64,000 bases of DNA from IMG/VR virus record IMGVR_UViG_3300037391_000121. One strand, 5' to 3'. The DNA is from a virus (taxonomy: Duplodnaviria; Heunggongvirae; Uroviricota; Caudoviricetes). Below, one piece after another: positions 346-30,500 of the stretch; position 1 is the stretch's first letter, and each line of letters opens with the position of its first letter. Position numbers and translations under genes: made by a program. The notes beneath the pieces were generated by a model. The model made no database searches, was not told where the DNA came from, and worked only from the letters and a program-made list of their open reading frames with translations.

Positions 346-353
346 GCGGCTCC

Positions 354-2828: not shown

Positions 2829-2861
2829 TTTTATCTCTCTGATTAGGAGTTACATAGTCCT

Positions 2862-3650: not shown

Positions 3651-3735
3651 TCAATCTGATCCCCTATAAACGAATGACAAAGCTAAAAAACGTGAGAACT
3701 GTCAAAAACTCCATTTTTACTGGGGAAATGAGAGG

Positions 3736-3885: not shown

Positions 3886-4520
3886 AGCTTTTGAATTGTC
3901 TCCCACGGTTCAGGTTTGTAATCCTTACTCAGATGCTTCCTGCAAGCATTGGCCGTATGGATCGCCGCTACGACCAAGGCAGGATCGTTCAGATCGTACC
4001 TCGCTGCAACAGGCGTCTTCTTTTGAAAATTGTAGTCGGCTCCCCCAGCGAGATTGTCGAACTTCAAATTCTGCCAAGCGGATTTACGTACCGCTATGGA
4101 TGCGAGCCAACCGATCCCTTTCGGCGTCGTGTATCGGTAAGCTTGCTGGGTGCCGTGCTGATAGTAGTAGAGAGTGCTCGTTCCAGAAAGCTGCAATGCT
4201 GGATTCTCGATGAGCGGCGTGATCTGGCGAGTGATTCGATTTGTGGGATACCAATCATCGTCGTCGAAGACAATCCCGAACTCACCGCTCGCTAATTCAA
4301 AGCAACGATTCATCTTCGCCCCATGGTGTTTTTTGGGCTTTTCATGGAAATATTTGATCCTCGGATCGGTCGGCAGGAGGTTCCCGATTGGGTCTGCGCC
4401 ATCATCCAGTATGATCCATTCCAGATTCGGATAATCTTGCGAGAGGAAGCACTGGATGGCCCGAGGAAAGAAGGCTCGGCGATTAAAAGTCGGCGTTAGT
4501 GCACTTACGAGAGGAGGCAT
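3873..4520 (-). CDS. family-2 (GT-A) glycosyltransferase
   Basis: LVSALTPTFNRRAFFPRAIQCFLSQDYPNLEWIILDDGADP matches the GT2 N-terminal signature with the DD motif. Start taken at internal Met (MPPLVS) because the upstream part of the ORF overlaps the preceding gene. Confidence 0.6.
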   Translation of the reverse strand: MPPLVSALTPTFNRRAFFPRAIQCFLSQDYPNLEWIILDDGADPIGNLLPTDPRIKYFHEKPKKHHGAKMNRCFELASGEFGIVFDDDDWYPTNRITRQITPLIENPALQLSGTSTLYYYQHGTQQAYRYTTPKGIGWLASIAVRKSAWQNLKFDNLAGGADYNFQKKTPVAARYDLNDPALVVAAIHTANACRKHLSKDYKPEPWETIQKLWQK

Positions 4521-4813
4521 TAGTGTTCGATGCACTTTCTCATGATGCCCGCCGTGATCTGAGAGAGCGCGATCACGATAAAGCCCTGCACGATGTGGTC
4601 GATGAAACTTCCACCGAGGGTCTTGTAGTACGCCAGCACGAGCATCGCCGTTACCCAATGACTTACGCACCATGAGCATGACAATAACTGGTCTAAAAAT
4701 GGGAATTTCGGTGCCAACCAGTCGTGGGGTTTAGCAAAAATCTTCCCCTCGGCTACGACCAAACTGATCGCTCCGCAGGCAACGCCTAGTTCAGCCAAAA
4801 ACGTGAGATTCAT
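4520..4813 (-). CDS. small multi-pass membrane protein, 97 aa
   Basis: Two or three hydrophobic helices. Its stop overlaps the glycosyltransferase start by 1 nt. Confidence 0.45.
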   Translation of the reverse strand: MNLTFLAELGVACGAISLVVAEGKIFAKPHDWLAPKFPFLDQLLSCSWCVSHWVTAMLVLAYYKTLGGSFIDHIVQGFIVIALSQITAGIMRKCIEH

Positions 4814-14286: not shown

Positions 14287-14564
14287 TCAATGAGCTTCTC
14301 GCACTTACGGAGAGGCCCTACGATGAGTACAACACGGTTCTGACCGAAGTCATGACCCGCCTGCCGCTCGACGTGCAGGTGCAGACGTTCCAGCAGGTCT
14401 TAGGGGAAGAGCTTCCCCTGACCACCGCCCGCCGCGCCTATCGCACCGCCATTCGGATAGCAATGGGGCAGGAAGATGTCCACCGTGAGTACCAGCCACA
14501 CGGCCTGCCAAGAAAAATAATTTCAAAAAACAGTTGCCAAAATCGTAAAACTTCCGTATTGTAA
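14262..14564 (+). CDS. hypothetical protein
   Basis: Internal Met (MPAKQ) preceded by AAAGGGG; alternative start at 14244. Confidence 0.35.
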   Translation: MPAKQIPLVNELLALTERPYDEYNTVLTEVMTRLPLDVQVQTFQQVLGEELPLTTARRAYRTAIRIAMGQEDVHREYQPHGLPRKIISKNSCQNRKTSVL

Positions 14565-14621
14565 CTACAGAGAAGCTTTACGGTCGCCCGCAAGGGCTCC
14601 AAAACAATTTCAGAACCTCAC

Positions 14622-14707
14622 GATGGTGTTAGGTTGACGGTTACTTCATTCAACTGAATTCGCCAATGGCGAACTGGGGCTTGCCCCTCTCTGTCTCCGC
14701 TTGTTCC
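14622..14707 (+). ncRNA. degenerate Y-RNA-like element (copy 0)
   Basis: GATGGTGTTAGGTTGACGGTTACTTCA ... TCCGCTTGTTCC resembles the conserved 5' and 3' arms of the better copies. Internal hairpins TTCGCC-AATG-GCGAA and GGGGC-TTG-CCCC. Confidence 0.35.
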
Positions 14708-14710
14708 TCG

Positions 14711-14880
14711 TGGGTTCAATTTGCAAAAGGAGTTGCCCGGGATCATACTGCCGCCTTCGGGCGGGTGTCCCTGATACGTGCAATATTCCTTTCGACGGGT
14801 GGGAAACGTGCCCCGCAGACTGCCAGCCTCGGCTGGGTGTACCTGCGAGGTCCACCCACCGTCGTCCGATTTTAATGTGC
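14711..14880 (+). ncRNA. structured non-coding region (possible additional small RNA or processing signals)
   Basis: Hairpins CCGCC-TTCG-GGCGG, long-range stem CGACGGGTGG...CCACCGTCG, T-loop-like GTGGGTTCAATT, ends GATTTTA just before the next RNA. Confidence 0.3.
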
Positions 14881-14881
14881 T

Positions 14882-15004
14882 GTGGTGTTAGGAAACGGAT
14901 ACTTCTCCTGAAAAGAGGGGGACGTGGGTTCGAGTCCCACTGCCCGTCGCGAGACGGGTATAGCTCAGTGGCAGAGCACCAACCGTGCCGTTCCGCTTGT
15001 TCCC
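14882..15004 (+). ncRNA. YrlA-like Y RNA with circularly permuted tRNA-like module (copy 1)
   Basis: 5' arm GTGGTGTTAGGAAACGGATACTTCT; T-arm GTGGG-TTCGAGT-CCCAC (14924-14940); 8-bp hairpin CCCGTC-GCGA-GACGGG; D-arm TAGCTCAGTGGCAGAGCA; 3' arm CCGTTCCGCTTGTTCCC. Directly upstream of rsr. Confidence 0.6.
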
Positions 15005-15156
15005 AGCACAGTTTTCGCGAAGGTGCCCTTGAGAGGGGCTTAAAGAAGCGTGAGCCGCTTCGCCATCGGGGTAAGGCCGCTACCAAGGGAGGTAGCGGGG
15101 CAACGTGGGCACGCACTCCCACCCTTATCATTGATATTTTGAAGGAGGATACCAGC

Positions 15157-16671
15157 ATGGCATCCGTGAACGCAGTAACTCGACGTATTGGTCCGCAGGT
15201 GCACACCGCACCCGGAGCCACGGCAGCACGCATCAACAAGGCGCTTCAGCTTCAGCGTCTCTTGAACGCTTGCATGTTGTGGGAAGACAATTTCTACATC
15301 GACGGCGAGACCGTCGCTGGCTTGATCCAGAAGCTCGTCCACGAGACTTCCGCAGAGAAGTGTGCGGAACTCGCGGTCAAGGCTCGTAATGAGCAGAAGC
15401 TTCGCCACGCACCGTTGCTCGTAGTGCGTGAGATGGCTCGTGCGTCCGCCGACCACAAGGCACTCGTGGCGGATACGCTGTTCGCCGTCATTCAGCGTCC
15501 TGATGAGATCGCGGAGTTTCTCGCGATTTACTGGAAGGACGGGAAGCAGCCGATCTCCGCTCAGGTGAAGAAGGGCCTCGCTCGCGTGTACAACAAGTTC
15601 TCCGAGTACCAGCTTGCGAAGTGGAACAAGGACAAGGACATCAAGCTGCGTGACGTGGCTTTCTTGACGCACGCAAAGCCGAAGGACAAGGCTCAGGGTC
15701 TTCTGTTGGCGCAATTGGTCAACAAGGATCGCGTGCCCGTGGCAACCCGTGGCGGAAAGTACGACAAGAAGAAGGCCGCTGGGTTCCCGGTCGCGAAGAC
15801 CTACAAGACGCTGGCGAAGAATTTCGTCGGTCTGGCAACGCCCGACACTTGGGAGGTTGCACTCTCTGGTGGGGCAGGCAAGAAGGAGACGTTCACCCGT
15901 ATGCTCGAAGAGGGCACGCTGGGTGCAATCGCCGTCCTGAAGAACCTCCGCAACATGACTCAGGCGGGCGTGTCGAACAGCGTCATCAAGAGCGGTTTGG
16001 CAACCATGAAGACTGAGCGTGTGCTCCCGTTCCGTTTCATCACGGCGGCGAAATATGCCCCGGGATTTGAGTCGGAACTTGAGCAGGCGATGTTCCGTTG
16101 CCTCGCGGGTGCCCCGAAGTTGCTGGGTCGCACTGGTGTTGTGATCGACGTTTCTGGGTCCATGAACGGCAAAGTCTCGGGTAAGTCTGAGCTTGGCCGT
16201 ATCGATGCTGCGGCCTGCATCGCAATGTTGCTTCGTGAGGTTTGCGAGGACGTTGTGATCTACTGCACGGCAGGTAACGACGGCACCCGTATCCACAAGA
16301 CGGAGATGATCCCGTCTCGTCGTGGGTTTGCGTTGCGTGATCTCATCAACCAGTCCGCAGGTCGTTTGGGCGGCGGCGGTATCTTCTTGACGCAGATGAT
16401 GGACTACGTTCGCAAGCATGAGCAGGGCGACTTCGAGCGTATGATCGTCATCACGGATGAGCAGGACTGTGAGCGTGATCCCGCTCGTGCGGCATCGCGT
16501 GCAAACACCTTTGGTGAGCACAACTACCTCATAAACATTGCCAATGAGAAGAACGGAATTGGCTACCGCAAGTGGCATCACATTGATGGATTCAGCGAAG
16601 CCGTCGTCACCTACATCTTCGCGGAAGAGGGCCAGTCCTTCGATTCCGCCGATGAAGACTCACTTAACTAA
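15157..16671 (+). CDS. rsr: Ro60-like protein (Rsr): TROVE domain plus vWA domain
   Basis: ATG after GAAGGAGGA. vWA MIDAS motif VIDVSGSMNG. Size (504 aa) and N-terminal region consistent with a TROVE domain. The tracked ORF start at 14701 is an over-extension across the ncRNA cluster. Confidence 0.75.
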   Translation: MASVNAVTRRIGPQVHTAPGATAARINKALQLQRLLNACMLWEDNFYIDGETVAGLIQKLVHETSAEKCAELAVKARNEQKLRHAPLLVVREMARASADHKALVADTLFAVIQRPDEIAEFLAIYWKDGKQPISAQVKKGLARVYNKFSEYQLAKWNKDKDIKLRDVAFLTHAKPKDKAQGLLLAQLVNKDRVPVATRGGKYDKKKAAGFPVAKTYKTLAKNFVGLATPDTWEVALSGGAGKKETFTRMLEEGTLGAIAVLKNLRNMTQAGVSNSVIKSGLATMKTERVLPFRFITAAKYAPGFESELEQAMFRCLAGAPKLLGRTGVVIDVSGSMNGKVSGKSELGRIDAAACIAMLLREVCEDVVIYCTAGNDGTRIHKTEMIPSRRGFALRDLINQSAGRLGGGGIFLTQMMDYVRKHEQGDFERMIVITDEQDCERDPARAASRANTFGEHNYLINIANEKNGIGYRKWHHIDGFSEAVVTYIFAEEGQSFDSADEDSLN

Positions 16672-16707
16672 TCAGTTCTGGGTTCGTTAACAAACAGATT
16701 AGGTAAC

Positions 16708-16736
16708 TTCCGAACCCCTGAATAGGGGGTTCGGAA
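16708..16736 (+). promoter_or_regulatory. perfect 11-bp stem-loop abutting the HNH start codon
   Basis: TTCCGAACCCC-TGAATA-GGGGGTTCGGAA ends 1 nt before the ATG at 16737. No T-run after it. Confidence 0.5.
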
Positions 16737-17300
16737 ATGATTGGTGAAAGGTTCGGTAGGTACGTCGTTCTCGAAAGAATAGAAGACCACATTACGACTG
16801 GGGGACAGAAATTTTCCCAGTGGAATTGTCGTTGTGACTGTGGCATAGTCAAGCCTGTCCTTGGGGCAAAGCTGAGGAGCGGAAACACAAAAAGTTGTGG
16901 TTGTTTGCGGTTAGAGCGATTGGCGGCGAACAGAAAGATTCTTCCCTCGGGTCAATCTCTACGAAATTCCGTCCACCACACCTACGAACTTCGTGCGGCA
17001 AAAAACCATCTCGTGTGGGAGTTGACAGACGACAAGTTCGACGAGTTGACGCGGGGAGATTGCTACTACTGCGGCTGTCCGCCCGCTAATATGGCGAGTC
17101 GCTCGTTCTTACATGGGGACTTCGTGTACAATGGGATTGACCGAAAAGACAATCTCAAGGGGTACACAACGGATAACACCGTATCTTGTTGCGGCATTTG
17201 CAATAAGATGAAGCGCGATTTGTCGGTTGAAGAATTTCTGAGTCGTGTGAGTTGTATAGCGAAAAGGCACAGCGAATATGGCAAAAGCGAGGCATTATAG
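16737..17300 (+). CDS. HNH homing endonuclease
   Basis: GRYVVLERIED..QWNCRCDCG..SCGC N-terminal zinc region and DRKDNLKGYTTDNTVSCCGICNKMK HNH motif. Confidence 0.7.
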   Translation: MIGERFGRYVVLERIEDHITTGGQKFSQWNCRCDCGIVKPVLGAKLRSGNTKSCGCLRLERLAANRKILPSGQSLRNSVHHTYELRAAKNHLVWELTDDKFDELTRGDCYYCGCPPANMASRSFLHGDFVYNGIDRKDNLKGYTTDNTVSCCGICNKMKRDLSVEEFLSRVSCIAKRHSEYGKSEAL

Positions 17301-18300
17301 GAACGGACGCAGCAGGAATCGTCCAAACCGAGGACGCTGGATTAGCAACCAGACGCTCTACGCAAAGCCGTGGACGCCGTGGGACCCGACCGCTAATTTT
17401 GATCCAGCACGAGTTGAATTCGGTTTCAAAGAGTTCTGGCCGGACGCCGCGTCCAAGTACAAGCCATTCTTTAGGCACATCAAGGTGTTTGAAGACGCGA
17501 TGAATCGCCTCGTTAACAAAGGGCGATCAGACGTGGATACGTACCCGCATGGCTGGAGGGTTATCCACACTCTGGTCGAAACGGTATTCGTGGGCATGAC
17601 ATCTGTTGTTACCCTTGTCGGAAATGGACAAGGGCCTGATGCTTTCAAAGTCGCTCGTAGTGCTTTGGAGAACGCGATCAACGCTGAGTATCTTCGTCTT
17701 TACCCAGATGAGGTAGACAATTACCTCGAATGGAAGTTCGTGGAAGACCACAAGAAGCTTGAATCCATTCGGCAGTATCGCCCAGCGTCGTTGGCGGGCT
17801 TCACGAAGGATCAGTTAGACAAGGTTGACAACGAATACGACCGCGTGAAGGATAGGTTCCGCAACACCTCCACGTCCAAATGCGAAAGCTGCGGGCACGA
17901 GCGCAATCGTGTAAATAAGTGGAATTGCTGGACTGTCAAGAACTTAGCGGAACGCGCAGAATTGACCGCGACCGATTCGTTGTATCGAGCATCGATGAGA
18001 CTCATGAACGAAGTGATGCATGGCTCAATCAGTGGCATCATGCAATACTTCGGCTCTGAGGACCCAGATCGCATCGCCGTACCTCCGCATGACAGCGAGT
18101 GTGCTACAATGGCATTGGTCGCAGCGCATGAAAGCCTGCTCCGCGCTATTAGGACGCTTACGCAGGTGTACAATGAGGACTCGACCCCTCCGTATGATGA
18201 TCTCCTAAAGGAGTTCGTCTCCGTGTGGGAAAAGATTCTCGGTATAAAAGCCGAACCGCTTCCAGCGGTAATGGCGGCAAAAGCTCTAGGAGGAGTTTAA
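17278..18300 (+). CDS. hypothetical protein, 340 aa (basic N-terminus)
   Basis: Long ORF overlapping the HNH stop by 23 nt. Confidence 0.45.
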   Translation: MAKARHYRNGRSRNRPNRGRWISNQTLYAKPWTPWDPTANFDPARVEFGFKEFWPDAASKYKPFFRHIKVFEDAMNRLVNKGRSDVDTYPHGWRVIHTLVETVFVGMTSVVTLVGNGQGPDAFKVARSALENAINAEYLRLYPDEVDNYLEWKFVEDHKKLESIRQYRPASLAGFTKDQLDKVDNEYDRVKDRFRNTSTSKCESCGHERNRVNKWNCWTVKNLAERAELTATDSLYRASMRLMNEVMHGSISGIMQYFGSEDPDRIAVPPHDSECATMALVAAHESLLRAIRTLTQVYNEDSTPPYDDLLKEFVSVWEKILGIKAEPLPAVMAAKALGGV

Positions 18301-18301
18301 C

Positions 18302-18562
18302 ATGGGAACCGAAACGCAGTATTACGTCATCGATGCAACTTTGATACCCGAGAAGGACCCTTTCACGGGCCTGTCCGTCAGCATCGGGGCGACCACCAAG
18401 CAACTTGTGGGGCACCAAGGATTGGCGGACGAGCAGGTTTCCGCTGTTGAGTTATTGACTCCCGGCGTGGAGGACGGAAACTACACGTTGATCTACTCGT
18501 TGCTGGGGAAGAACCATTCGTCTGATGTCCGTGTCTATTTGGGGAACTTCTTGACGCGGTAA
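18302..18562 (+). CDS. hypothetical protein, 86 aa
   Basis: ORF 2 nt after the previous stop. Confidence 0.4.
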   Translation: MGTETQYYVIDATLIPEKDPFTGLSVSIGATTKQLVGHQGLADEQVSAVELLTPGVEDGNYTLIYSLLGKNHSSDVRVYLGNFLTR

Positions 18563-18699
18563 CTAAACTTAAGGTCGGGCGCTCCCACGAGCACGCACCC
18601 GATGTACGAAGCCGAAGCAGCGTGGAACGGAGTGATAACGCTTCGATTAAGCTTGCAAGACAGGTATGTCAGTATAAAATATCGGTGGAGGAAACTGGG

Positions 18700-18748
18700 C
18701 GGTCCACCGAGTACCCCTTGCATTTTCCCGCAAACGTGGTATTATTTC
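18700..18748 (+). promoter_or_regulatory. promoter-family copy (CCTTGCATTTTCCCGCAAACGTGGTATTAT) placed for a leaderless transcript
   Basis: Extended -10 TGGTATTAT ends about 7 nt before the ATG at 18752. Upstream hairpin TCGGTGGA-13nt-TCCACCGA preceded by TATAAAAT. Confidence 0.4.
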
Positions 18749-18751
18749 TTT

Positions 18752-18934
18752 ATGCCATTCAAAGCCATAAAACGTAAGATCAAAAAAGACGGGAAAGTCA
18801 CTACAATCAAAATTTTCAGGGACGGTGCGGATGGCACAGGTGTAAGGCTGCCGTTTAGCTGTGGGTTCTGTAACGAGGTTCACTTTCGGTCCCGCCAGCA
18901 GCGCACCGACCATACGCAGCATTGTCCCAAGTAA
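18752..18934 (+). CDS. small zinc-finger-like protein, 60 aa
   Basis: MPFKAIKRK..CGFCNEVHF..HTQHC. Start at the internal Met because the upstream part of ORF 18602 carries the promoter element. Confidence 0.4.
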   Translation: MPFKAIKRKIKKDGKVTTIKIFRDGADGTGVRLPFSCGFCNEVHFRSRQQRTDHTQHCPK

Positions 18935-18948
18935 GCTTGTGTGGGTGG

Positions 18949-19020
18949 TGATTGGAAACGGGTACTTCTTCCTTTAACGAAAGATGCCGAAAGGCTACCC
19001 CGTCCCGCTTGTTCCCCCAC
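18949..19020 (+). ncRNA. YrlB-like short Y RNA without a tRNA-like module (copy 3)
   Basis: GTGGTGATTGGAAACGGGTACTTCT ... hairpin CCTTT..AAAGG ... CCGTCCCGCTTGTTCCC. Confidence 0.5.
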
Positions 19021-19037
19021 CATGTTTCGCCGAGTGG

Positions 19038-19161
19038 TGTTAGGAAACGGGTACTTCTCTCGCCTTGGGAGAGTAGCTCAGCGGTAGAGCGCCTGACTTG
19101 AAATCAGGAGGCCGTTGGTTCGACTCCAACCTCAACTACTCCGTCCCGCTTGTTCCCTCGG
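19038..19161 (+). ncRNA. YrlA-like Y RNA with colinear tRNA-like module (copy 2)
   Basis: 5' arm GTGGTGTTAGGAAACGGGTACTTCT; hairpin CTCTC-GCCTTGG-GAGAG; D-arm TAGCTCAGCGGTAGAGCG; anticodon-like arm CCTGA-CTTGAAA-TCAGG; T-arm GTTGG-TTCGACT-CCAAC; 3' arm CCGTCCCGCTTGTTCCC. The acceptor stem does not pair and there is no CCA. Confidence 0.6.
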
Positions 19162-19180
19162 CATATTTTCTGGAGCTTCA

Positions 19181-19429
19181 ATGAAGCCATTGGGTATCGA
19201 CGCCGCTATCGACCAGATCGAAACCGCCCTATTTGATCTCAGTGAACCCGGTTGCACGGACACCGAATATAGCGATGAGATTGTCATCAACTCCATCGGT
19301 CGCATCCGCCTGAGAGCGATCCTCAAACGCCTCCGTGTGGGCTACATGCGTGGGGTGGGAATCAATTCCCTGTGCCCGCACGACCTTGCAGTGCAGGCGA
19401 AGCTGAAGAAGCTTAAGAAAAAGCGATGA
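19181..19429 (+). CDS. hypothetical protein, 82 aa
   Basis: ATG after TGGAGCTTCA; the tracked start at 19115 would overlap the ncRNA. Confidence 0.45.
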   Translation: MKPLGIDAAIDQIETALFDLSEPGCTDTEYSDEIVINSIGRIRLRAILKRLRVGYMRGVGINSLCPHDLAVQAKLKKLKKKR

Positions 19430-19986
19430 GAACGCTCAGACTAGGATTCACGGGCACTCATCATGGCATGGATGATTTCCAAAAAGAATCCATCGCTCTC
19501 CTGTTCACCCAACTTTTCCGAGAATACGACTTCATTGAATTTCACCATGGTGATTGCATTGGGGCCGATTCTCAGGCCGCGACAATTCTCAACGATTTGC
19601 GGAACAGCCACTACTCAACGAAATGCCGTGTACGAATCATCTGTCACCCCGGCTTCCCACCGAACCACCCCAAAGAGACCAAATTCCGAGCGTTTACTGA
19701 TTTCAACGATGAAGTCCGCGAGGTAAAAGTTTTCATTGGCCGCGATCATGATATAGTAGATGAGACCGAGGAAATGGTCGCCACGCCCGTGACTGAGGAC
19801 GAAGAGGTTCGTTCTGGTACATGGACAACGGTGCGGTACGCCCGCAAGCAGGGCAGGAAGGTTACCGTCTTGAATCCCAAGAAGACGATCAAGTTCGATC
19901 CGCACGCGATGCCAGTCAAGACGAACGCGGTCTCGGGCGAGATCAATTTGTACGGGCCGACCCATCGGCAGAGGGGCATCCGATGA
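19426..19986 (+). CDS. SLOG-fold (YpsA/DprA-like) protein
   Basis: LGFTGTHHG..ESIALLFTQL..HHGDCIGADSQAA resembles the YpsA/DprA-type Rossmann-like (SLOG) motif pattern. Family assignment is tentative. Confidence 0.35.
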   Translation: MRTLRLGFTGTHHGMDDFQKESIALLFTQLFREYDFIEFHHGDCIGADSQAATILNDLRNSHYSTKCRVRIICHPGFPPNHPKETKFRAFTDFNDEVREVKVFIGRDHDIVDETEEMVATPVTEDEEVRSGTWTTVRYARKQGRKVTVLNPKKTIKFDPHAMPVKTNAVSGEINLYGPTHRQRGIR

Positions 19987-20011
19987 AGCACAAAATGCTG
20001 AAGAAAATTCC

Positions 20012-23256: not shown

Positions 23257-23580
23257 TTGTCCGTGGACACATTCCGAGATTCGCCCGTGGGAGATACGGA
23301 AGGCGGTCGCGGAGAAAAGGCTTCGACGCGAGATAATACGCGGAAACAGAACATCGAGCGGATCGCTTACTTCGTAGTGCGGGGCTGGCGTGATCCAATC
23401 GGAATTGACGTAGGGGTGCCGGGGTTGAGTTTCCACGAGCCAGCCTTGACGGATGGATACCACCGACTATCGGCGGCAATGTTTCGGAAAGACTCTCATA
23501 TCCGAGCAATCGTGGACGGCGACTTAAAGTACGCCTTCGAGCTGTTTGGGGTTAATTGTGAGGAGAAGTATGGCAGATAA
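23257..23580 (+). CDS. ParB/Srx-like nuclease-domain protein
   Basis: LTDGYHRLSAAMF matches the DGxHR ParB/sulfiredoxin-fold motif. Start uncertain; it overlaps the alternative ORF 22985..23377. Confidence 0.4.
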   Translation: MSVDTFRDSPVGDTEGGRGEKASTRDNTRKQNIERIAYFVVRGWRDPIGIDVGVPGLSFHEPALTDGYHRLSAAMFRKDSHIRAIVDGDLKYAFELFGVNCEEKYGR

Positions 23581-24166
23581 ATTGATCGTGCGGTATTGGG
23601 ATGATCCAGCCCTGTCCACCCTTTGCGATGCGGTGGAGGACAACGAGTTCGGCCCGCAGTTGGGCGAGTTCGCGGCCTCGTTGCTGATAGCAATGGGTGA
23701 CAGGAACGGCGTTGGGCTGGCGGCTCCGCAGGTGGGCATCACCAAACGGATTTTTGCCATGTGCTTCCCCGATGACGAGGAATTCAACCGTAAGTGGGCT
23801 GCCGCTGGCGTTGCGCCAGTAACCGAAGTGAGGAAGGCAATCGTCGTGTGTAATCCGACACTGGTATTTGAGGGCAAAACGGTGTATGCTCGTGAGGGTT
23901 GCCTGTCGCTGCCCGGGATTCATGAACAAGTCTCCCGAGCCGAGAAAGTGACAATGCAGTATCGGCAGACGGACGGCGTAGCGAAAGAGATCGTGCTGAC
24001 GGACATCAATGCCCGAGTCGCGCAGCATGAGTTCGATCACTTGAACGGCATCATGTTCTTCAACTACACGGACAAACGTCCGCAATACGGAGCACGGATG
24101 TCTAAGCAGGTGAGCAAGCAAGTCCTGCGGGATTGGGAAAAGGAAAGGGCAAAACGTGGCATCTAA
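23570..24166 (+). CDS. def: peptide deformylase
   Basis: All three PDF motifs present: GVGLAAPQVG, EGCLSLPG, QHEFDHLNG. GAGGAG SD before MADKLIV. Confidence 0.8.
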   Translation: MADKLIVRYWDDPALSTLCDAVEDNEFGPQLGEFAASLLIAMGDRNGVGLAAPQVGITKRIFAMCFPDDEEFNRKWAAAGVAPVTEVRKAIVVCNPTLVFEGKTVYAREGCLSLPGIHEQVSRAEKVTMQYRQTDGVAKEIVLTDINARVAQHEFDHLNGIMFFNYTDKRPQYGARMSKQVSKQVLRDWEKERAKRGI

Positions 24167-24383
24167 ACCAGCACCAGCGCGAGAGAAGTACACGAAGAAA
24201 GAGCAGACGTTCATAGCGATGGACAACCTTCGGGCGATGCTCCGTTGCTACATGAACTTAGTTCGTGACAATGCCTTAGTTCCACCGGGCATCGGCAACG
24301 GGCTCTGCGGCTATGAAGAGCGGATCAAGACGGAGTTTCAAAAACTCGCTGATTTGCTCGGCATGGAATCAACTAAACTGTGA
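24156..24383 (+). CDS. hypothetical protein, 75 aa
   Basis: ORF overlapping the def stop. Confidence 0.4.
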   Translation: MASKPAPAREKYTKKEQTFIAMDNLRAMLRCYMNLVRDNALVPPGIGNGLCGYEERIKTEFQKLADLLGMESTKL

Positions 24384-24392
24384 GGTTCTGAC

Positions 24393-24581
24393 ATGGAACA
24401 GGAAGACAGTTTGAATTTCGATCAACCGCATCTGACGCTGTTCGTAGGTGACGGCGTAACGGTGATCGTCGGCAACAAAACGTATCGCGGCACGCTGGTG
24501 CAAGACGGCGACCGCTGGTATGTCAAGTTGGCTGGTCGCGAGCCGGGTGAGATCGACGAAGTTGTGATCGCGAAGCTTTAG
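24393..24581 (+). CDS. hypothetical protein, 62 aa
   Basis: ORF. Confidence 0.4.
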   Translation: MEQEDSLNFDQPHLTLFVGDGVTVIVGNKTYRGTLVQDGDRWYVKLAGREPGEIDEVVIAKL

Positions 24582-24589
24582 GAGGAAAC

Positions 24590-24808
24590 GTGCTACCGCC
24601 TTGTGGATGCCCGCCGCCAGCCCCAGAGACGTTCTGGACGCTGTTTCATGACGCCGCCCACTGGAAGTTTGAGTTGTTCGTCGGCGGCATTGAGGAACTC
24701 GTGACGGGTGTCCTTATCGGCATGTTTGTGTGGCCGCGTATCCAGAGACACTGGAAGCACCATCTCGAAAGAGACAAAAAAGAGGGACGGAATGGCGACC
24801 ACGCTTGA
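24590..24808 (+). CDS. hypothetical membrane-associated protein, 72 aa
   Basis: GTG start after AGGAGGAAAC. Confidence 0.4.
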   Translation: MLPPCGCPPPAPETFWTLFHDAAHWKFELFVGGIEELVTGVLIGMFVWPRIQRHWKHHLERDKKEGRNGDHA

Positions 24809-24968
24809 AATGATTATCGCCGACATGGAAGCTGACTTGGAGTACGGCGAAAGCTTCCCCAACAGCATGAGCAGTCGTGGCGAGGAAGCCATGGAAGACG
24901 GGAAAGTCCAGCTTTTGAGAAAGTATCTGCCCAAGTTGCGGGCGTTAAGGGATCAGAATGGCGAATAA
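24792..24968 (+). CDS. hypothetical acidic protein
   Basis: Internal Met (MATTLEM) overlapping the upstream stop. Confidence 0.35.
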   Translation: MATTLEMIIADMEADLEYGESFPNSMSSRGEEAMEDGKVQLLRKYLPKLRALRDQNGE

Positions 24969-26067
24969 GGGATTCACGGAGACTCGATACGATTACTCGG
25001 CAGGGCGTGACCACGCTCCTGAGCTAACCGTGTGCGTCGGTATCAGTGGTTCTGGGAAGAGCACCGAGGTCATGCAGCGGGTGAAGCGGTCGCAGGGTAA
25101 GACCGTCCGTCTGAACCGTGACAAGATGCGTGAGATGCTGTTCTGCGGTGCGGATTGGAACAAGCACAACGAGAATTTCGTCCGCACTTGGCAGATGGAG
25201 GGGGCTCGTATTGCACTCCAGTCGGGCAAGAACGTGGTCATCGACGACACGAACTGCATCCGCAACACGCGGCAGAAGTGGGAAGAGTTTGCGGTCGAGC
25301 AGAAGGTTAAGCTGTGCTTCTTGGTTATGGACGTTCCGTTGAAGGAGTGTGTTGAGCGGGACATTGCACGCGGAGTTCCGTGCCCGACCTGTGGGACGCC
25401 AAAGGGCGTCATGGTTGGCGAGGAGATCATCCGCCGCCAGTACAAGGATTTGACGAGTTTCAATATGAGCAACCGAGACATGACGCCTACGTCGCCGACG
25501 CGAGCTTGGATGGAGCGTCAGGCCCTCTTGAAGGGCGGGTTCGTGCCTCGTCTTGTGGGGCGTCCGTGGGTGTTGTTTGACATGGACGGCACCGTAGCAG
25601 ATCACCGTGGGCAGCGGAACCCTTACGAGGAGCACAAGGTCACGCTGGACAACTGCTACGAGGTCGTTGCGGAGTGGATTCGGCAGTTGGCTCCGTCGCA
25701 CAACCTTTGCGCGGTTTCAGGCCGTCATGATTTTTGTGGGGATTTGACGTGTGAGTGGTTGGAGGGATACAACGTTCCCTTCGATCATATCCTGATGCGC
25801 TACAACGGGGACAACCGCCCCGACGTGGTGGTCAAGCAGGAAATCCTCAACGAGTTGATCGCCGTCATCGGGAAGGAGAACATCGCATTCGTTCTCGATG
25901 ACCGCCCTCAGGTAGTGAAAATGTGGAGGGCGAATGGGATCAAGGTTTACCCGGTACGCGGTGAGCCGATCCACAGGGCGGGGTGCTCGAACGGCTACGC
26001 GAAGCCGAAGGAAGGCGTGTACATCGGCGGTTTCTGCGGTGAGTGTGGTGCGTTGGAGAACTTCTAG
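24958..26067 (+). CDS. polynucleotide 5'-kinase/3'-phosphatase (T4 Pnkp-like)
   Basis: N-terminal P-loop GISGSGKST. C-terminal HAD motif VLFDMDGTV (DxDGT). Domain order kinase then phosphatase, as in T4 PseT. Confidence 0.7.
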   Translation: MANKGFTETRYDYSAGRDHAPELTVCVGISGSGKSTEVMQRVKRSQGKTVRLNRDKMREMLFCGADWNKHNENFVRTWQMEGARIALQSGKNVVIDDTNCIRNTRQKWEEFAVEQKVKLCFLVMDVPLKECVERDIARGVPCPTCGTPKGVMVGEEIIRRQYKDLTSFNMSNRDMTPTSPTRAWMERQALLKGGFVPRLVGRPWVLFDMDGTVADHRGQRNPYEEHKVTLDNCYEVVAEWIRQLAPSHNLCAVSGRHDFCGDLTCEWLEGYNVPFDHILMRYNGDNRPDVVVKQEILNELIAVIGKENIAFVLDDRPQVVKMWRANGIKVYPVRGEPIHRAGCSNGYAKPKEGVYIGGFCGECGALENF

Positions 26068-26187
26068 TGAGACGACCAGTGCCGGGGTATGTCGAACGGG
26101 CTTGCTTTCGGATGAGGGACAACAGAGACCTTATCCAATGGCTGACCGAGGCGTACCCCGACACGATGCGTTGGATTTCGTACACGA

Positions 26188-26412
26188 TTGACACGACCTT
26201 GGAGAACATGCGGAGCAGGGAAATTCAGAAGGCGCAGGAGGCCGACCGTGGACAAGCAACTCGTAGCTGATCTCAGGAAAGAGTATACGGAATTGGTCGA
26301 AGTGCTCGAAGGCGATGGCTTCTGCATTCGTCGCGAGTGCATGTGCGATCATGCGAAGCCCGTGGTGAAGATGAACGATCTCATCACGAAGTTGGAGCAG
26401 GAGGCAAACTGA
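26188..26412 (+). CDS. hypothetical protein
   Basis: ORF; the true start may be the internal GTG. Confidence 0.3.
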   Translation: MTRPWRTCGAGKFRRRRRPTVDKQLVADLRKEYTELVEVLEGDGFCIRRECMCDHAKPVVKMNDLITKLEQEAN

Positions 26413-26804
26413 TGGGGTACATGATCCTCAAGCTGAATGATGGTAAGCGAGATTTCTACCTCGAATGGTCAACGCACACTGATGCCCCGCGAACCTTCGG
26501 CATGACGCTAAATGAATTCACCGCGTTCTACCGTGACGAGTATGGTCGCAGTAGCATGTTGGAGTTTCAGGAGCGGATGGAACGGGTCGAAGCGAAAGGG
26601 ACCTCCGACTACTGCGAGGAGTCCGTGGATGAAACCATCGCCCGCAATCACGCAGGCAAGGATGGCACCTGCCTGACGAAGGAACAGATCATCAAGGTTT
26701 ACTGCCACGAACGTCAGAAGCCCGTAACGGAAGAGGGTGTTGATCCGTGGGCTGAGGAAAAGGCCGCAGAAGCGGCAATGGAAGCACGCAGAGGAGTAAT
26801 CTGA
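26412..26804 (+). CDS. hypothetical protein
   Basis: Internal Met (MGYMILKL) of ORF 26337, right after the upstream stop. Confidence 0.4.
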   Translation: MGYMILKLNDGKRDFYLEWSTHTDAPRTFGMTLNEFTAFYRDEYGRSSMLEFQERMERVEAKGTSDYCEESVDETIARNHAGKDGTCLTKEQIIKVYCHERQKPVTEEGVDPWAEEKAAEAAMEARRGVI

Positions 26805-27109
26805 TGTTGTGTTGGGGCGGTAATTCCAAGGAAACGTCGATCACTGTCGCGATGCAGCCGAACCTGTTTCAGCGAGGCGACAAGATTCGGGTGAGCGGAT
26901 TTGTGAACAGTAACAACGGTTTGTTCGTAGTCAGGCGTGCGAAGGGCACGAGCTACATCGTACAGCCTGCCGACTGGTGGGATTACGTGACGCACTACGC
27001 CTCGAAGTTCTGGAACGAAGTGCAGTGGAAGTTCTGGGGCGTGGTCAACAATTTGGAGGATTTGTGGAACCGACTGTTGGAGAGCCTAAAGCGCGTAAGA
27101 AGCAGATGA
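26804..27109 (+). CDS. hypothetical protein, 101 aa
   Basis: ORF with overlapping start. Confidence 0.4.
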   Translation: MLCWGGNSKETSITVAMQPNLFQRGDKIRVSGFVNSNNGLFVVRRAKGTSYIVQPADWWDYVTHYASKFWNEVQWKFWGVVNNLEDLWNRLLESLKRVRSR

Positions 27110-27255
27110 CACGGCACGATTGGTACATCGTGCTCACCCTGCTCATGTTTGCGAACGCGGCATTGTTCGACGGTAAACGCGGCTGGGGCATGGGCCTGAC
27201 GCTCGTCGCGATCTTGATTGTGGTTCTGGTGGACGGTTTCGGTGTTAAATTATGA
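27106..27255 (+). CDS. small membrane protein
   Basis: MTRHDWYIVLTLLMF...; internal Met of ORF 26977. Confidence 0.35.
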   Translation: MTRHDWYIVLTLLMFANAALFDGKRGWGMGLTLVAILIVVLVDGFGVKL

Positions 27256-28391
27256 CGGTTTTCCTCAAGGACGTTTTGCCTGTCGATTTGCTGAACAAGC
27301 ATATCGAGGACGGCGTAATCCGTAAGCAGGTCCACCCCGACTATCCCGACCAGCTTTACATCTTGAACTATTCCGAGCAGGCTCAGTTCGGTCGCATCTG
27401 GGATGCGGCAACCAACGTGTGCCGTGGATTGGTCTGCGCCATTACGCCTGACGGCGACGTTGTGATTGCACGCGGATTCAACAAGTTCCACAATTACAAC
27501 ACGGAGTACCTGCCCGAGACGATGGACGCAAACTTGCCGCCCGTCACACCGCTGGCGACCCAGAAGTTGGATGGGTCGATGGGGCTCCCGTACTATTGGG
27601 ACGGCAAGTGGTGGGTTGCAACTCGCGGCTCGTTCGCTTCGGATCAGGCAAAATGGGCGACCGAGTGGCTCCGTCACAACTATCCGCTCTTCCACTCGGG
27701 TTCGTTCTCCACGCCCGTGTGCGAGGTAATCTACAAGGAGAACCGCATCGTCGTTGATTACGACTTTGAGGGACTCGTGTTGCTTGGCTTCGTGGACTTG
27801 GCGACTGGTTACGAACTCGGTCGGCTGTTCTGCGAGGATTGGGCATTCGCAAAGCAGTTCCCTATCGTCAAGAAGTTCGATAAGACGTTGGCGGAATGTG
27901 CTGCCGAGAACAACTTGAACGAAGAGGGCTACGTCTTGACTTACGACAAGGGGCGTGATGTAGCGCCCTTGAAGATCAAGGTGAAGTTCGCGGACTATGT
28001 GCGCTTGCACCGCATCTTGACTGGCTTGAATCCCAAGGCGATCTGGGAGATGTTGGAGGCCGGACAGAACGAGGCAATCGACACCATCATCGCCGACCCG
28101 ACGATGCCTGCGCCGTTCATCGCGTGGTTTTCGGGATGGGTGGAGCAGTTCCGTGCTCGGCATCGGGAGATGGAGCGGAAGGCACTGTACGTGTTCGACC
28201 GCCGCCCGAAGAACGATCTCGGCGATTTGGGTCCTGCCCTGCACCGCAAGTCGGTCGCTTTGTACTTCCAGAAGACGCCCGAGTTGTGCTCGATCCTGTT
28301 CGCGTTGCTGGACGGCAAGAACCATGCGTCCATCATTTGGGATCGCCTCAAGCCCAAGGCGACGGACACTTTCAAGAAGGACGGGGAGTGA
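27252..28391 (+). CDS. RNA ligase (T4 Rnl1-like, ATP-dependent)
   Basis: Nucleotidyltransferase motif I QKLDGSMG (KxDG lysine) at about residue 104. ATGA overlap upstream. Confidence 0.65.
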   Translation: MTVFLKDVLPVDLLNKHIEDGVIRKQVHPDYPDQLYILNYSEQAQFGRIWDAATNVCRGLVCAITPDGDVVIARGFNKFHNYNTEYLPETMDANLPPVTPLATQKLDGSMGLPYYWDGKWWVATRGSFASDQAKWATEWLRHNYPLFHSGSFSTPVCEVIYKENRIVVDYDFEGLVLLGFVDLATGYELGRLFCEDWAFAKQFPIVKKFDKTLAECAAENNLNEEGYVLTYDKGRDVAPLKIKVKFADYVRLHRILTGLNPKAIWEMLEAGQNEAIDTIIADPTMPAPFIAWFSGWVEQFRARHREMERKALYVFDRRPKNDLGDLGPALHRKSVALYFQKTPELCSILFALLDGKNHASIIWDRLKPKATDTFKKDGE

Positions 28392-28845
28392 GTGCTTCAC
28401 CCTGCTCAGCACGCTTTATCCAGTTGTGATTTGCACAGAGCAGTTGGTAGTTCTTACCCCCGTCCGCTAGAACTTTTTTCAAGTAGGTTTCTTGTGCCAG
28501 ACCTCTTAACTCTTTACAACCGCCTCCGAATTTATGGTCAATCTGGAGAGCCCTCGGGTCTGTCCATCCGCAACCCGGCCAAGCACATTGATTCCCCAGC
28601 ATTGCGAACACGGCTTCCTTACGCCGCGCTCGTGTCTGTCTGCTGTAGCCGTTATATCGTTCTCGATTGTTTTTCTTGGTTGCGGCTGTTACGGCAATGC
28701 ATTTTTCACGGTGGTTTTTGTAATGCTCGGCGCTTTTCTGCCGCTGTATTTGTAAACAGGTTTCACAGCAGGTTTTTCCGCCTGCTGTTGGATTCGGGCA
28801 ACGTGCACATTTCATGAAATAACCCCCTCTATAATAGGGGTTCAT
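28372..28845 (-). mobile_element. free-standing HNH homing endonuclease, opposite strand, inserted between the RNA ligase and CCA genes
   Basis: CAWPGCGW..LQIDH..LLCANHNW HNH motif plus N-terminal Cys cluster. The only minus-strand gene in the plus block. Overlaps the ligase 3' end by 20 nt. Confidence 0.65.
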
Positions 28846-28886
28846 AGCATAAAGATTTGTAAGTAGTTACAAAATAAGGGGTTATT

Positions 28887-28924
28887 CCTAAAGTTTTCGG
28901 GCGTTTCCTTGGTATAATAGGGGT
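28887..28924 (+). promoter_or_regulatory. conserved promoter element, copy 3
   Basis: CCTAAAGTTTTCGGGCGTTTCCTTGGTATAATAGGGGT then ATG at 28927. Confidence 0.55.
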
Positions 28925-28926
28925 AT

Positions 28927-29184
28927 ATGAGACGAAGCTTTCTGGATTCGATGCTGTCATTCGTGGGTCGGTGTACCCACGACCGTTATTCATTTCCCCA
29001 GACGATCAAGGCAGGCAAGGACAAGGGCAAGACCACGGTCTCCTGCTTGGACTGCGGCAAGACGCTGCCGTATGATTGGGCGGGGTTGGGCGCGGAGGAA
29101 GAAATCAAACCCCCCAAGATGACGGCACCGAGGGTTATCGTGATCGAGAAGACGGGAACGTATCTCATAGGAGAACAAAAGTGA
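28927..29184 (+). CDS. small zinc-finger protein, 85 aa
   Basis: CTHDRY..CLDCGKTLPYDW. Confidence 0.45.
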   Translation: MRRSFLDSMLSFVGRCTHDRYSFPQTIKAGKDKGKTTVSCLDCGKTLPYDWAGLGAEEEIKPPKMTAPRVIVIEKTGTYLIGEQK

Positions 29185-30500
29185 ACAGATTCGCCGCAAC
29201 CACAGTCATCCGAGAATTGCAGAGGAACGGCTTTGAAGCTTTCCTCGTAGGCGGCTGCGTGCGCGACATGATCCTCGGCAATGAGCCGAAGGATTTCGAC
29301 GTGACCACGAATGCTCTCCCTGAACAGGTGCAGGCGATCTTCGCCAAGACCTTGCCAGTCGGCGTCAGCTTCGGTGTGGTTATCGTTGTGGTGGATGTTG
29401 ACGGCAAGGGCGAGCAGATCGAAGTCGCTACCTACCGCAAGGACGGCGTGTACTCCGATGGTCGGCGTCCCGACACGGTTGAGTACGGCAAGACTGCACG
29501 GGAAGACGTGGAACGTCGCGACTTCACCATGAACGGCCTGCTCCTGACGACGCCGATGGATTTCCCCGTCAAAGGTGTCACCGCCGCAGACCACGACATG
29601 TTCGACGGCTACGGCATTGTTGACTTTGTTGGTGGACGGGAAGACATCAAGGCTCGGCTTATCCGCTGCATCGGTGACCCCAACAAGCGGTTCACGGAAG
29701 ATGCCCTGCGGATGATGAGGGCCGTGCGCTTCGCCGCGAAACTCGGCTTCGACATCGAGCCCGAGACGTTGAAGGCGATCACCGTCAATGCACCGAAGAT
29801 GGTGAACATCAGCCGCGAGCGAGTGGCGATGGAACTGTTCAAGTTGCTGACGGCTCCATTCCCTCTTAAGGGGCTCGTGCCCCTGTTCGCCTCGGGGTTG
29901 GCGGCACACGTGTTCCCGAAGGAATTTATGGACAACGTGCTGCTTGGCCGCACGCTGCGGCGATTCACGGAATTTCCTACGTCGAATCCAACATTGGCGA
30001 TGGCAATGTTTCTCAGCGATACGTCGAATCCTAAGACGCCGATGACGATGGCCTTGAGTTTGAAGCTGAGCAACGACGAGAAAACACAGATCGTGACGGC
30101 GCTGCTGTATGTCAGTGCGATCCCGAAGGCGCGGGAGTACGCCAGCACGCCCGCTCATTTTATTCGGACGATGCGAGTTCCGGGAATCGAATTGGGTCTG
30201 GAGATTGCCATCCAGAACGAAATGCTCGGCATAACCAACGTCGGCAATGAGGCTCTGATGTCGATTGTTAACGACTACCGGGGTCTGACGCCTGAGGAAA
30301 TTTACCCGAAGCCGTTGGTGACGGGGGACGATTTGATCGCCGCTGGCTACACGCCGAGCAAGGTGTTCCGCGACGTTCTGTACGTCATCGAAACGGAACA
30401 GTTGGACGGCAAGCTGACCACTCACGAGCAGGCCCTACAGCGTGCGATTGTGCTCATGACTGGCATCTGTACCGAACGTGTTGCTGAGGGCGGTGCGTGA
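29181..30500 (+). CDS. cca: tRNA nucleotidyltransferase (CCA-adding enzyme / poly(A) polymerase family)
   Basis: Head-domain motif FLVGGCVRDMILGNEPKDFDVTT (GGxVRD...DxD). GTG start after AGGAGAA with a GTGA overlap; in frame with ORF 29076. Confidence 0.7.
   Translation: MNRFAATTVIRELQRNGFEAFLVGGCVRDMILGNEPKDFDVTTNALPEQVQAIFAKTLPVGVSFGVVIVVVDVDGKGEQIEVATYRKDGVYSDGRRPDTVEYGKTAREDVERRDFTMNGLLLTTPMDFPVKGVTAADHDMFDGYGIVDFVGGREDIKARLIRCIGDPNKRFTEDALRMMRAVRFAAKLGFDIEPETLKAITVNAPKMVNISRERVAMELFKLLTAPFPLKGLVPLFASGLAAHVFPKEFMDNVLLGRTLRRFTEFPTSNPTLAMAMFLSDTSNPKTPMTMALSLKLSNDEKTQIVTALLYVSAIPKAREYASTPAHFIRTMRVPGIELGLEIAIQNEMLGITNVGNEALMSIVNDYRGLTPEEIYPKPLVTGDDLIAAGYTPSKVFRDVLYVIETEQLDGKLTTHEQALQRAIVLMTGICTERVAEGGA

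Follow-up and report, generated by a model that had tools for sequence, protein, structure and literature searches.

A phage Y RNA predicted to carry a near-complete tRNA mimic of rearranged connectivity

The described RNAs that come closest to the one reported here are Y RNAs that mimic tRNA. YrlA RNAs consist of a T arm, an acceptor stem-loop, and a D arm, often with a "V" stem-loop placed first, and the Mycobacterium smegmatis YrlA, the one with an acceptor stem of 7 bp, undergoes RNase P cleavage and acquires CCA, its two halves remaining bound to Rsr (Chen 2014, PMC4201824). The same study described Yrn1 of Deinococcus radiodurans, in which the orientation is opposite, the D arm is doubtful, and the "anticodon" loop has 6 nt. 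Wang 2018 (10.1101/312249) showed that YrlA is without an anticodon loop or a free CCA end, noted its resemblance to permuted tRNAs, and suggested that YrlA RNAs could be processed toward a closer likeness to canonical tRNA. Hughes 2020 (PMC7790460) proposed YrlA's tRNA-like domain as a possible competitive inhibitor of anticodon nuclease. Here we analyze a 64,000-nucleotide stretch of Caudoviricetes DNA (IMG/VR record IMGVR_UViG_3300037391_000121), referred to in its full length as the window, which encodes a Ro60 (TROVE) protein and four Y RNAs that we call Ya, Yb, Yc, and Yd. We hold with moderate confidence that Yd is a Y RNA whose effector is a near-complete tRNA mimic of rearranged connectivity, with a Ro60-type stem inserted at the break.

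Yd has the marks of a Y RNA. Its ends pair in a covarying stem, it shares frame motifs with the other Y RNAs of the window, and it lies on the same strand as the nearby Ro60 gene, which ends 2.36 kb upstream. The 5' motif GGTGTTAGGAAACGG together with the 3' motif CCGCTTGTTCC occurs four times in the window, each time on the Ro60 strand, and a covariance model built from seven sequences, Yd and its homologues (model R1), matched at 14618 to 14715, 14877 to 15011, 18940 to 19023, and 19029 to 19164. Across the homologues, both-side changes were found at 5 of 8 pairs of the terminal stem GCCGAG/CUCGGC, at 4 of 5 pairs of the anticodon-like stem, at 2 of 5 pairs of the T stem, and at 1 of 4 pairs of the inner helix. 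The original prediction had recognized here a tRNA mimic set in the same Y-RNA frame as its copy 1 (our Yc) with another topology. That description stands, and the topology differs from the canonical YrlA order of Yb as well; the element is a Y RNA as proposed, although its span of 19038 to 19161 has to be corrected to 19029 to 19162. The tRNA order and the positions given for the individual arms agreed with our reading of the sequence and with the Rfam tRNA alignment. The parts of Yd are as follows.

19029 to 19162, + strand: the whole Y RNA, Yd (R1, 149.2 bits over 19029 to 19164)
19036 to 19050, + strand: conserved 5' Y-frame motif GGUGUUAGGAAACGG, common to the window's other Y RNAs
19055 to 19061, + strand: UUCUCUC, the strand pairing with tRNA positions 1 to 7; equivalent of the acceptor 3' strand (66 to 72), placed upstream
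19062 to 19066, + strand: hairpin loop GCCUU, with a discriminator-like G followed by C-C (G-C-C at 19062 to 19064)
19067 to 19073, + strand: GGGAGAG, acceptor 5' strand, tRNA positions 1 to 7
19074 to 19075, + strand: U8 and A9 (Rfam tRNA alignment)
19076 to 19090, + strand: D arm GCUC-AGCGGUA-GAGC (Rfam tRNA alignment)
19091, + strand: G26 (Rfam tRNA alignment)
19092 to 19108, + strand: anticodon-like arm CCUGA-CUUGAAA-UCAGG, with its loop at 19097 to 19103 and the "anticodon" UGA at 19099 to 19101
19109 to 19113, + strand: 5-nt variable loop AGGCC
19114 to 19130, + strand: T arm GUUGG-UUCGACU-CCAAC
19131 to 19138, + strand: CUCAACU-A, a putative remnant of a colinear acceptor 3' strand (CUCAACU, 19131 to 19137) and a discriminator-like A; linker to the Y stem
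19146 to 19156, + strand: conserved 3' Y-frame motif CCGCUUGUUCC, carried without change by each of the window's four Y RNAs and found also in relatives
19163 to 19170, + strand: U-rich tail AUAUUUUC, following Yd

Like YrlA (RF02553; S. Typhimurium structure, PDB 6CU1), Yd is presumed to associate with Ro60, lies on the Ro60 strand, and has both D and T arms, a 15:48 pair, and an acceptor-like hairpin that is closed. Its connectivity differs. YrlA goes from T arm through acceptor hairpin to D arm, and its anticodon stem opens into the Ro60 stem, leaving no anticodon loop, whereas Yd runs from acceptor hairpin to D arm, complete anticodon-like arm, and T arm, with the Y stem at 65/66. The Rfam YrlA model gave Yd only 15.5 bits against a gathering score of 69, in a match limited to the hairpin and the D arm. 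The YrlA of M. smegmatis likewise has a 7-bp acceptor-like stem closed by a loop, and its cut falls at the position of a tRNA 5' end and leaves CCA on the upstream half; unlike Yd, it keeps the canonical arm order and has no anticodon arm. Its CCA is encoded only in part, with CA added. Yrn1, compared by the description of Chen 2014 only, shares with Yd the D-to-T orientation and a stem-loop at the place of the anticodon arm, but with its doubtful D arm, 6-nt loop, missing variable arm, and no acceptor mimic described it differs from Yd, which has every tRNA element. In the Y RNA literature surveyed we found no description of an RNA that, like Yd, combines an acceptor closed at 7 bp with an encoded NCC(A), keeps the anticodon-type arm in full, and is opened at this break point. 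By sequence comparison, Yd adds a new topology to the tRNA-mimicking Y RNAs.

Two strands could pair with tRNA positions 1 to 7 of Yd, the upstream UUCUCUC and the colinear CUCAACU that follows the T arm. The original prediction had found the colinear pairing poor, about 5 of 7 with a G-U pair, and had concluded that the module was without a functional acceptor stem. The poor pairing was confirmed: in the window, G1.U72, G2-C71, and three further pairs can form, and G3xA70 and A4xA69 are unpaired. The relatives do not maintain this stem, with 4 of 7 pairs in L083 and L060 (L numbers denote the sequences examined) and no real complementarity in L090; pairs 3:70 and 4:69 were absent in all seven aligned homologues. 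An acceptor-like helix of 7 bp that covaries is nonetheless made with the upstream strand, and the conclusion is not supported. Closure of the 5' strand on upstream sequence had itself been foreseen, as a shorter stem; the better form is the 7-bp pairing of UUCUCUC (19055 to 19061) with GGGAGAG around the loop GCCUU, which is the one contained in the minimum free energy fold of the window sequence. This hairpin directly precedes U8, A9, and the D stem, as the acceptor 5' strand does in tRNA. Upstream strand and positions 1 to 7 are paired at 7 of 7 positions in all seven aligned sequences, and the helix covaries across four lineages, as follows.

Window clade: upstream strand UUCUCUC, positions 1 to 7 GGGAGAG
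L060: upstream strand UUCUUCC, positions 1 to 7 GGAAGAG
L090: upstream strand UAUCGCC, positions 1 to 7 GGCGAUA
L327: upstream strand UCUCAGC, positions 1 to 7 GCAGAGG (6 of 7 paired)

In L327, four pairs of the upstream helix are altered on both sides relative to L060. A MAFFT alignment of the seven homologues had the upstream helix 93.9% paired and the colinear acceptor 65.2% paired, the former figure including L090 even though the alignment misregisters that sequence; the L090 hairpin was scored by script because model-based realignment retained the MAFFT register. Unconstrained folding always gave the upstream hairpin, and forcing the colinear acceptor pairing carried a penalty of about 8 to 15 kcal/mol.

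The loop of the upstream hairpin provides a second line of evidence. It starts with N-C-C-(A/U) in all four lineages, while the rest of the loop and the stem sequences vary. The original prediction had the module without a discriminator or CCA, which is correct for its 3' side; G-C-C is present at 19062 to 19064, in the hairpin loop upstream of G1. The loops are as follows.

Window clade: GCCUU or GCCUUA
L060: ACCACGAGCA
L327: ACCAAAGCA
L090: UCCAAAUCAAUU

The loop starts observed were GCC, GCC, ACCA, ACCA, and UCCA, and NCCA is fully encoded in three of the four lineages. Among canonical YrlA-type RNAs, NCC stood at the start of the acceptor loop in 2 of 33, which is the chance level. We also considered a "4+3" composite acceptor, with positions 1 to 4 paired upstream and 5 to 7 paired with the CUC after the T arm; it is conceivable, but the NCC(A) loop leaves no need for it. 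With an upstream helix that covaries and a loop that starts with a discriminator and CC(A), the module is most simply understood as a tRNA circularly permuted at 65/66. Numbered as a tRNA, it would have its break, occupied by the Y stem, between positions 65 and 66, and position 76 would be joined to 1. The upstream strand would stand for positions 66 to 72, followed by discriminator 73 and CC(A); G1 to G7 (19067 to 19073) and 19055 to 19061 would form the acceptor, and the D and anticodon-like arms, the variable loop, and the T arm would follow in tRNA order.

Permuted tRNA genes of Cyanidioschyzon merolae and two-piece permuted tmRNA genes encode the 3' acceptor strand (with CCA in tmRNA) upstream, and the spacer is removed. 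Yd is like them in building an acceptor helix from noncontiguous parts. They yield functional RNAs by defined processing, whereas the break in Yd is at 65/66, with a Ro60-type stem, and its processing is only predicted. One could suppose that Yd is likewise a permuted pre-tRNA matured to a contiguous tRNA, with the Y stem cut at 65/66, the ends healed and sealed by polynucleotide kinase-phosphatase (PNKP) and the Rnl1-type ligase, and RNase P taking out the spacer that separates CCA from G1. The order of 3' acceptor strand, discriminator, CC(A), spacer, and positions 1 to 65 would suit this, healing and sealing enzymes are encoded nearby, and processing of YrlA toward canonical tRNA likeness was raised by Wang 2018 (10.1101/312249). 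We nevertheless regard this as highly improbable: no endonuclease for a 65/66 junction is known or was identified, what is conserved in the Y frame is a Ro60-type stem and no splicing motif, Yd is missing from relatives that have these repair genes, and the anticodon loop is not conserved in the family.

The processing that we predict for Yd is that of the M. smegmatis YrlA. Yd has a 7-bp stem and an encoded NCC(A) at the loop start, and by analogy with that RNA, RNase P would cut 5' of G19067, between U19066 and G19067. The upstream piece would then be trimmed or repaired to end in GCCA, possibly via the phage nucleotidyltransferase. The phage Ro60 protein would bind the stem made by the paired 5' and 3' ends, a binding expected to depend on the terminal stem plus the GGUGUUAGG and CGCUUGUUCC motifs, and the module would fold into the tRNA L-shape. 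The product would be a nicked, two-piece ribonucleoprotein (RNP) in which the CCA end is free and the anticodon-type loop lies exposed.

The likeness of the module to tRNA is far beyond chance, given a score of 66.6 bits with the Rfam tRNA model RF00005 against a gathering score of 29 (E value of 2.6e-12, with two acceptor non-pairs flagged). ARAGORN called a tRNA-Ser(tga) at 19067 to 19139. The original prediction had expected tRNA gene finders to reject the module, and this did not hold. The elements of YrlA-like mimicry are all present in the window, namely, U8, A14, G18-G19, the 15:48 pair, the T-loop, and a closed acceptor-like helix. A Levitt pair is possible in Yd between G15 and C48 (19113), and 15:48 was G:C or A:U in every colinear Y RNA read, relatives included. 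For the distant members, the D-arm and T-loop motifs belonged to the search pattern and are therefore not independent evidence of mimicry.

The strength of these calls raises the alternative that the module is an ordinary colinear phage tRNA gene lying between Y-RNA-like flanks, from which positions 1 to 73 would be released by RNase P and a 3' nuclease and completed by the CCA-adding enzyme; the product would serve to read UCN serine codons or to withstand a host anticodon nuclease. Besides the scores, CUUGAAA has the form of a perfect anticodon loop of 7 nt and recurs identically in a genuine class II tRNA-Ser(UGA) in L006 and L017. It is unchanged in the four closest homologues, where ARAGORN again called tRNA-Ser, and the window encodes a probable CCA-adding enzyme. 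Yet the acceptor contains a G.U pair and, in its interior, two mismatches next to each other, with 3:70 and 4:69 missing throughout the seven homologues, and the 3' complement is down to 4 of 7 in L083, the Ro60 of which is 85% identical, and lacking altogether in L090. The loop is kept only among the four closest sequences. It differs in L083 (9 nt, or 7 nt with C33, and no ARAGORN tRNA call), in L060 (8 nt), and in L090 (a short hairpin). Bacterial seryl-tRNA synthetase relies on a long variable arm, and Yd, which joins a serine anticodon to a variable loop of 5 nt, does not make a coherent bacterial tRNA-Ser. Finally, the Y frame and the upstream helix both covary. With an acceptor stem not maintained in homologues, an anticodon loop not kept across orthologues, and an isotype-inconsistent body, Yd is no conventional decoding tRNA gene, and we consider the colinear tRNA alternative improbable. 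A BLAST search of the tRNA-like core against the ARAGORN tRNAs of the sequences examined found no isotype of origin. For L327, derivation of the module as a copy of the real tRNA-Thr of the same phage was ruled out by comparison.

Homologues of Yd form a small family. R1 recovered a close clade at 149 to 158 bits, consisting of L097, L057 (=L091), L120, and L030 (=L083), and more distant members in L060 (113.5 bits), L090 (103 bits), and L327 (95.6 bits); everything else in about 170 Ro60 loci scored 59 bits or less. A metagenome scan for D-arm and T-loop motifs followed, in this sequence, by the Y 3' motif had at least 120 matches, and those listed included L097, L057 (=L091), L120, L060, and L090, most of the others being ordinary tRNAs with a chance motif after them. 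L327 (=L328) was reached by a search with the Ro60 of L060, and in both L327 and L060 the copy lies directly upstream of Ro60. Yd is also present in L030 (=L031=L033=L083), with a Ro60 85% identical to that of the window, and the same architecture recurs in lineages where Ro60 is only about 40% identical. Megablast of positions 18000 to 20000 against cultured phages gave no match, a distant blastn search with Yd gave generic tRNA similarity only, and pattern scans of viral contigs (IMG/VR) gave no Yd-type RNA, returning short Y RNAs in which a T arm is present and a D arm is missing, as well as unrelated tRNA-plus-hairpin elements. Searched with R1, the approximately 170 Ro60 loci from viral contigs and GTDB genomes yielded hundreds of Y-frame RNAs and no further Yd-type RNA, in agreement with an nhmmer/regex screen.

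Such a distribution might be expected of a relic in decay, derived from part of a tandem tRNA pair that was captured during duplication of Yc and now functionless. Yd stands in tandem with Yc and has the same frame, its presence in close relatives is patchy, and the leftover colinear 3' strand is half decayed. CUCAACU may indeed be the decayed 3' strand of an ancestral colinear copy, for example, from a tandem tRNA pair. A functionless relic is very unlikely, however, in view of the compensatory changes in the Y stem, anticodon stem, T stem, and upstream acceptor helix, the NCC retained at the start of an otherwise variable loop, and the persistence of the architecture where Ro60 is so divergent.

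Several points weigh against reading Yd as a Ro60-anchored, permuted tRNA mimic. Two detection tools, ARAGORN and Rfam, call it a tRNA. The downstream strand of the window is still 5/7 complementary to positions 1 to 7, and in L327 the two pairings are not cleanly separated, at 6/7 upstream and 5/7 downstream. The first hairpin begins within an ACUUC motif common to all the Y RNAs of this phage, and part of its conservation may therefore have another cause. The loop of the window clade has only 5 to 6 nt and is without A76, which may be tight for RNase P and would need trimming plus addition of an A. The family is small, with at least eight distinct sequences in four related lineages, and it is patchy: relatives with Ro60 proteins 90%, 77%, and 61 to 65% identical are without Yd. 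In L091, which keeps Yc and Yd, neither the 4.5 kb upstream nor the approximately 3 kb downstream contains a Ro60 gene. The reading as a whole is one that we infer from nucleotide sequence.

The context in which Yd might act is suggested by three genes, 6 to 11 kb downstream of it and on the same strand.

24958 to 26067, + strand: PNKP (Pfam HAD_PNKP, 5.2e-33; AAA_33, 3.9e-21)
27252 to 28391, + strand: T4 Rnl1-type RNA ligase (Pfam RNA_lig_T4_1, 2e-14; NCBIfam T4 RnlA family, weak)
29076 to 30500, + strand: class II nucleotidyltransferase, best match CCA-adding enzyme (Pfam PolyA_pol, PolyA_pol_RNAbd, tRNA_NucTran2_2)

The product of 29076 to 30500 scored 262 bits with the NCBIfam model for CCA tRNA nucleotidyltransferase, under the cutoff of 290, and is probably a CCA-adding enzyme. 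The three genes belong to a same-strand block at 23546 to 30500, which includes a peptide deformylase and makes up a tRNA healing and sealing kit kept in L029, L030, and L034. Phage tRNAs and T4 Pnkp-Rnl1 are an answer to anticodon nucleases, and the phage carrying Yd is comparable in having a PNKP, an Rnl1-type ligase, and a tRNA-shaped RNA with an anticodon loop. Yd differs from phage tRNAs in being embedded in a Y-RNA stem, in its unmaintained colinear acceptor, and in its serine anticodon without a long variable arm.

Yd may function as a tether, a decoy, or a chargeable mimic. The RNP would display the mimic to tRNA-recognizing proteins in host-phage conflict over tRNA damage and repair, and this role is the leading functional guess because of the repair-gene context and the published suggestion linking YrlA to anticodon nuclease. 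A more specific version would add to the Y-RNA reading that the Ro60-bound RNA is, through its exposed anticodon-type arm, a decoy, or competitive inhibitor, of host tRNA-targeting nucleases or toxins, and so protects tRNAs together with PNKP-Rnl1. It takes up the proposal of Hughes 2020 (PMC7790460) that the YrlA domain inhibits anticodon nuclease; PNKP, Rnl1, and the probable CCA enzyme make the arena plausible, and C-U-N-N-N-A-A loops recur in independent colinear Y RNAs (L098, L148, and L235). This layer is possible, though doubtful. The loop is not conserved within the Yd family, there is no known nuclease target, and the repair genes are several kilobases off and present also in relatives without Yd. 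Anticodon-like hairpins occur in canonical YrlAs too, so the feature is not specific to Yd. A sequence-specific decoy role in particular is disfavored by the unconserved loop, the close relatives without Yd, and L091 with no Ro60 nearby. We think it unlikely that after RNase P cleavage and CCA completion Yd becomes a two-piece Ro60-anchored tRNA, with a true free CCA end and its anticodon arm intact, that could be aminoacylated or recognized as a particular tRNA and that phages and some bacteria would employ as bait, sensor, or inhibitor for tRNA-targeting defense nucleases or toxins.

The Ro60 gene and the other Y RNAs of the window are as follows.

14618 to 14715, + strand: Y RNA Ya (frame motif, R1)
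14877 to 15011, + strand: Y RNA Yb, just upstream of Ro60, in canonical YrlA order of hairpin, T arm, closed acceptor hairpin, and D arm (R1, 52.4 bits)
15157 to 16671, + strand: Ro60/TROVE protein gene, the presumed Y RNA partner (Pfam TROVE)
18940 to 19023, + strand: Y RNA Yc, in tandem with and directly upstream of Yd, without a tRNA-like module (R1, 38 bits; conserved in relatives)

The Ro60 product of the window is 100% identical to P0001, and its relatives are named "60 kDa SS-A/Ro ribonucleoprotein" in source records. Ro60 proteins at about 42% identity are found in cultured Brevundimonas, Xanthomonas, and Caulobacter phages, and the nearest cellular homologues are in Acidobacteriota metagenome-assembled genomes (MAGs). 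Binding of the Yd stem by Ro60 is inferred from sequence. Ya, Yb, and Yc are widespread on contigs encoding close Ro60 relatives, and the relatives with 61 to 65% identical Ro60 keep all three. Arrays of five to more than 10 Y-RNA-like elements surround Ro60 at many loci in Acidobacteriota MAGs and phage contigs, and in L156 to L315 (for example, L236, L187, L174, and L062) there were about 590 matches to the Y-frame positions of R1, nearly all on the Ro60 strand.

Several arrangements around these RNAs were recorded. In the window, genes at 16737 to 18562, including one for a DUF5677 protein (17278 to 18300), separate Ro60 from Yc; in L030 these genes are absent, and Yc-Yd follow Ro60 at about 0.35 to 0.65 kb. 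In L091 (contig Ga0302221_10000355), positions 1 to 4358 hold a Rap1a-like protein, an HNH endonuclease, and unknown open reading frames in place of the Ya-Yb-Ro60 segment (window, about 14500 to 18560), and the 7.9-kb stretch examined has no Ro60. A 91-nt noncoding block at 18564 to 18654 is 96.7% identical in L091 and L057, with flanks at about 85%, and ends at a promoter-like TTGCAA-16-TAAAAT (18653 to 18680). Its core, GTGGAACGG..GATAACGCT.CGA, is also found 5' of Y RNAs in L030 and L321, and the conserved block (18560 to 18660) folded no better than shuffled sequences. Another conserved block, about 250 nt in length and reaching from CACGGTAACTATGATCCGTGTAGGGACCGCC to GGACCGTGAGATGA, separates a tRNA-Met from the first Y RNA in L327 (about 250 to 500) and L060 (about 1515 to 1760, - strand); the L060 copy had no Rfam match at the gathering threshold.

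tRNA-like Y RNAs of other designs lie near other Ro60 genes. Colinear forms are rare. Of 160 Ro60 loci sampled, roughly 1 had such a form, and a strict regex counted about 40 canonical ones. The following have D, anticodon-like, and T arms in tRNA order.

L098, 2588 to 2755, - strand
L148, 1077 to 1243, - strand
L062, 2173 to 2321, - strand
L235, 3196 to 3330, + strand

In L098 and L148 an acceptor of 2 to 5 bp opens into the Y stem, and the T arm is followed by an additional hairpin; an acceptor is missing from L062 and L235. Their C-U-N-N-N-A-A loops are CUCGUAA in L098, CUUGUAA in L148, and CUUAAAA in L235. L098, L148, and L062 exceed the Rfam tRNA threshold, as do the Yd-type RNAs of L083 and L060.

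Canonical YrlA-type RNAs can also be taken for tRNAs. In Yb, ARAGORN called a tRNA-Phe(gaa) at 14875 to 14948, because the first hairpin, UUCUC-CUGAAAA-GAGGG (14903 to 14919), resembles a Phe anticodon arm. The annotated "tRNA-Ser" GURKE_03100 of Brevundimonas phage vB_BpoS-Gurke (ON529850.1), just upstream of Ro60, is part of a canonical YrlA (L324, 2313 to 2446), in which the "V" hairpin UUCGA-CUGCUAA-UCGGG mimics an anticodon arm. Of 33 canonical YrlA-type RNAs, 12 had a perfect 5-bp stem and 7-nt loop at the "V" position, and 7 of those 12 loops were of the form Y-U-NNN-R-N. Elsewhere in the window, a 96-nt tRNA-Phe(aaa) called by ARAGORN at 4450 to 4545 is without Rfam support and is probably a false positive.

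For genome annotation, the consequence is that ARAGORN and Rfam label Yd and several related Y RNAs as tRNA genes. For the biology of Ro60, the tRNA-mimicking Y RNAs known earlier were either opened at the anticodon, as in YrlA, or represented by the weak model of Yrn1, and Yd would be a second permutation. With it, tRNA mimicry on Ro60 RNPs appears to be multiform and can be nearly complete. Yd offers a concrete substrate for the idea of competition with anticodon nucleases (Hughes 2020) and for that of processing to tRNA-like ends (Chen 2014; Wang 2018). Should the two-piece Ro60-anchored tRNA prove real, it would create a physical link between Ro60 quality control and the PNKP-Rnl1-CCA repair enzymes of the same genome.

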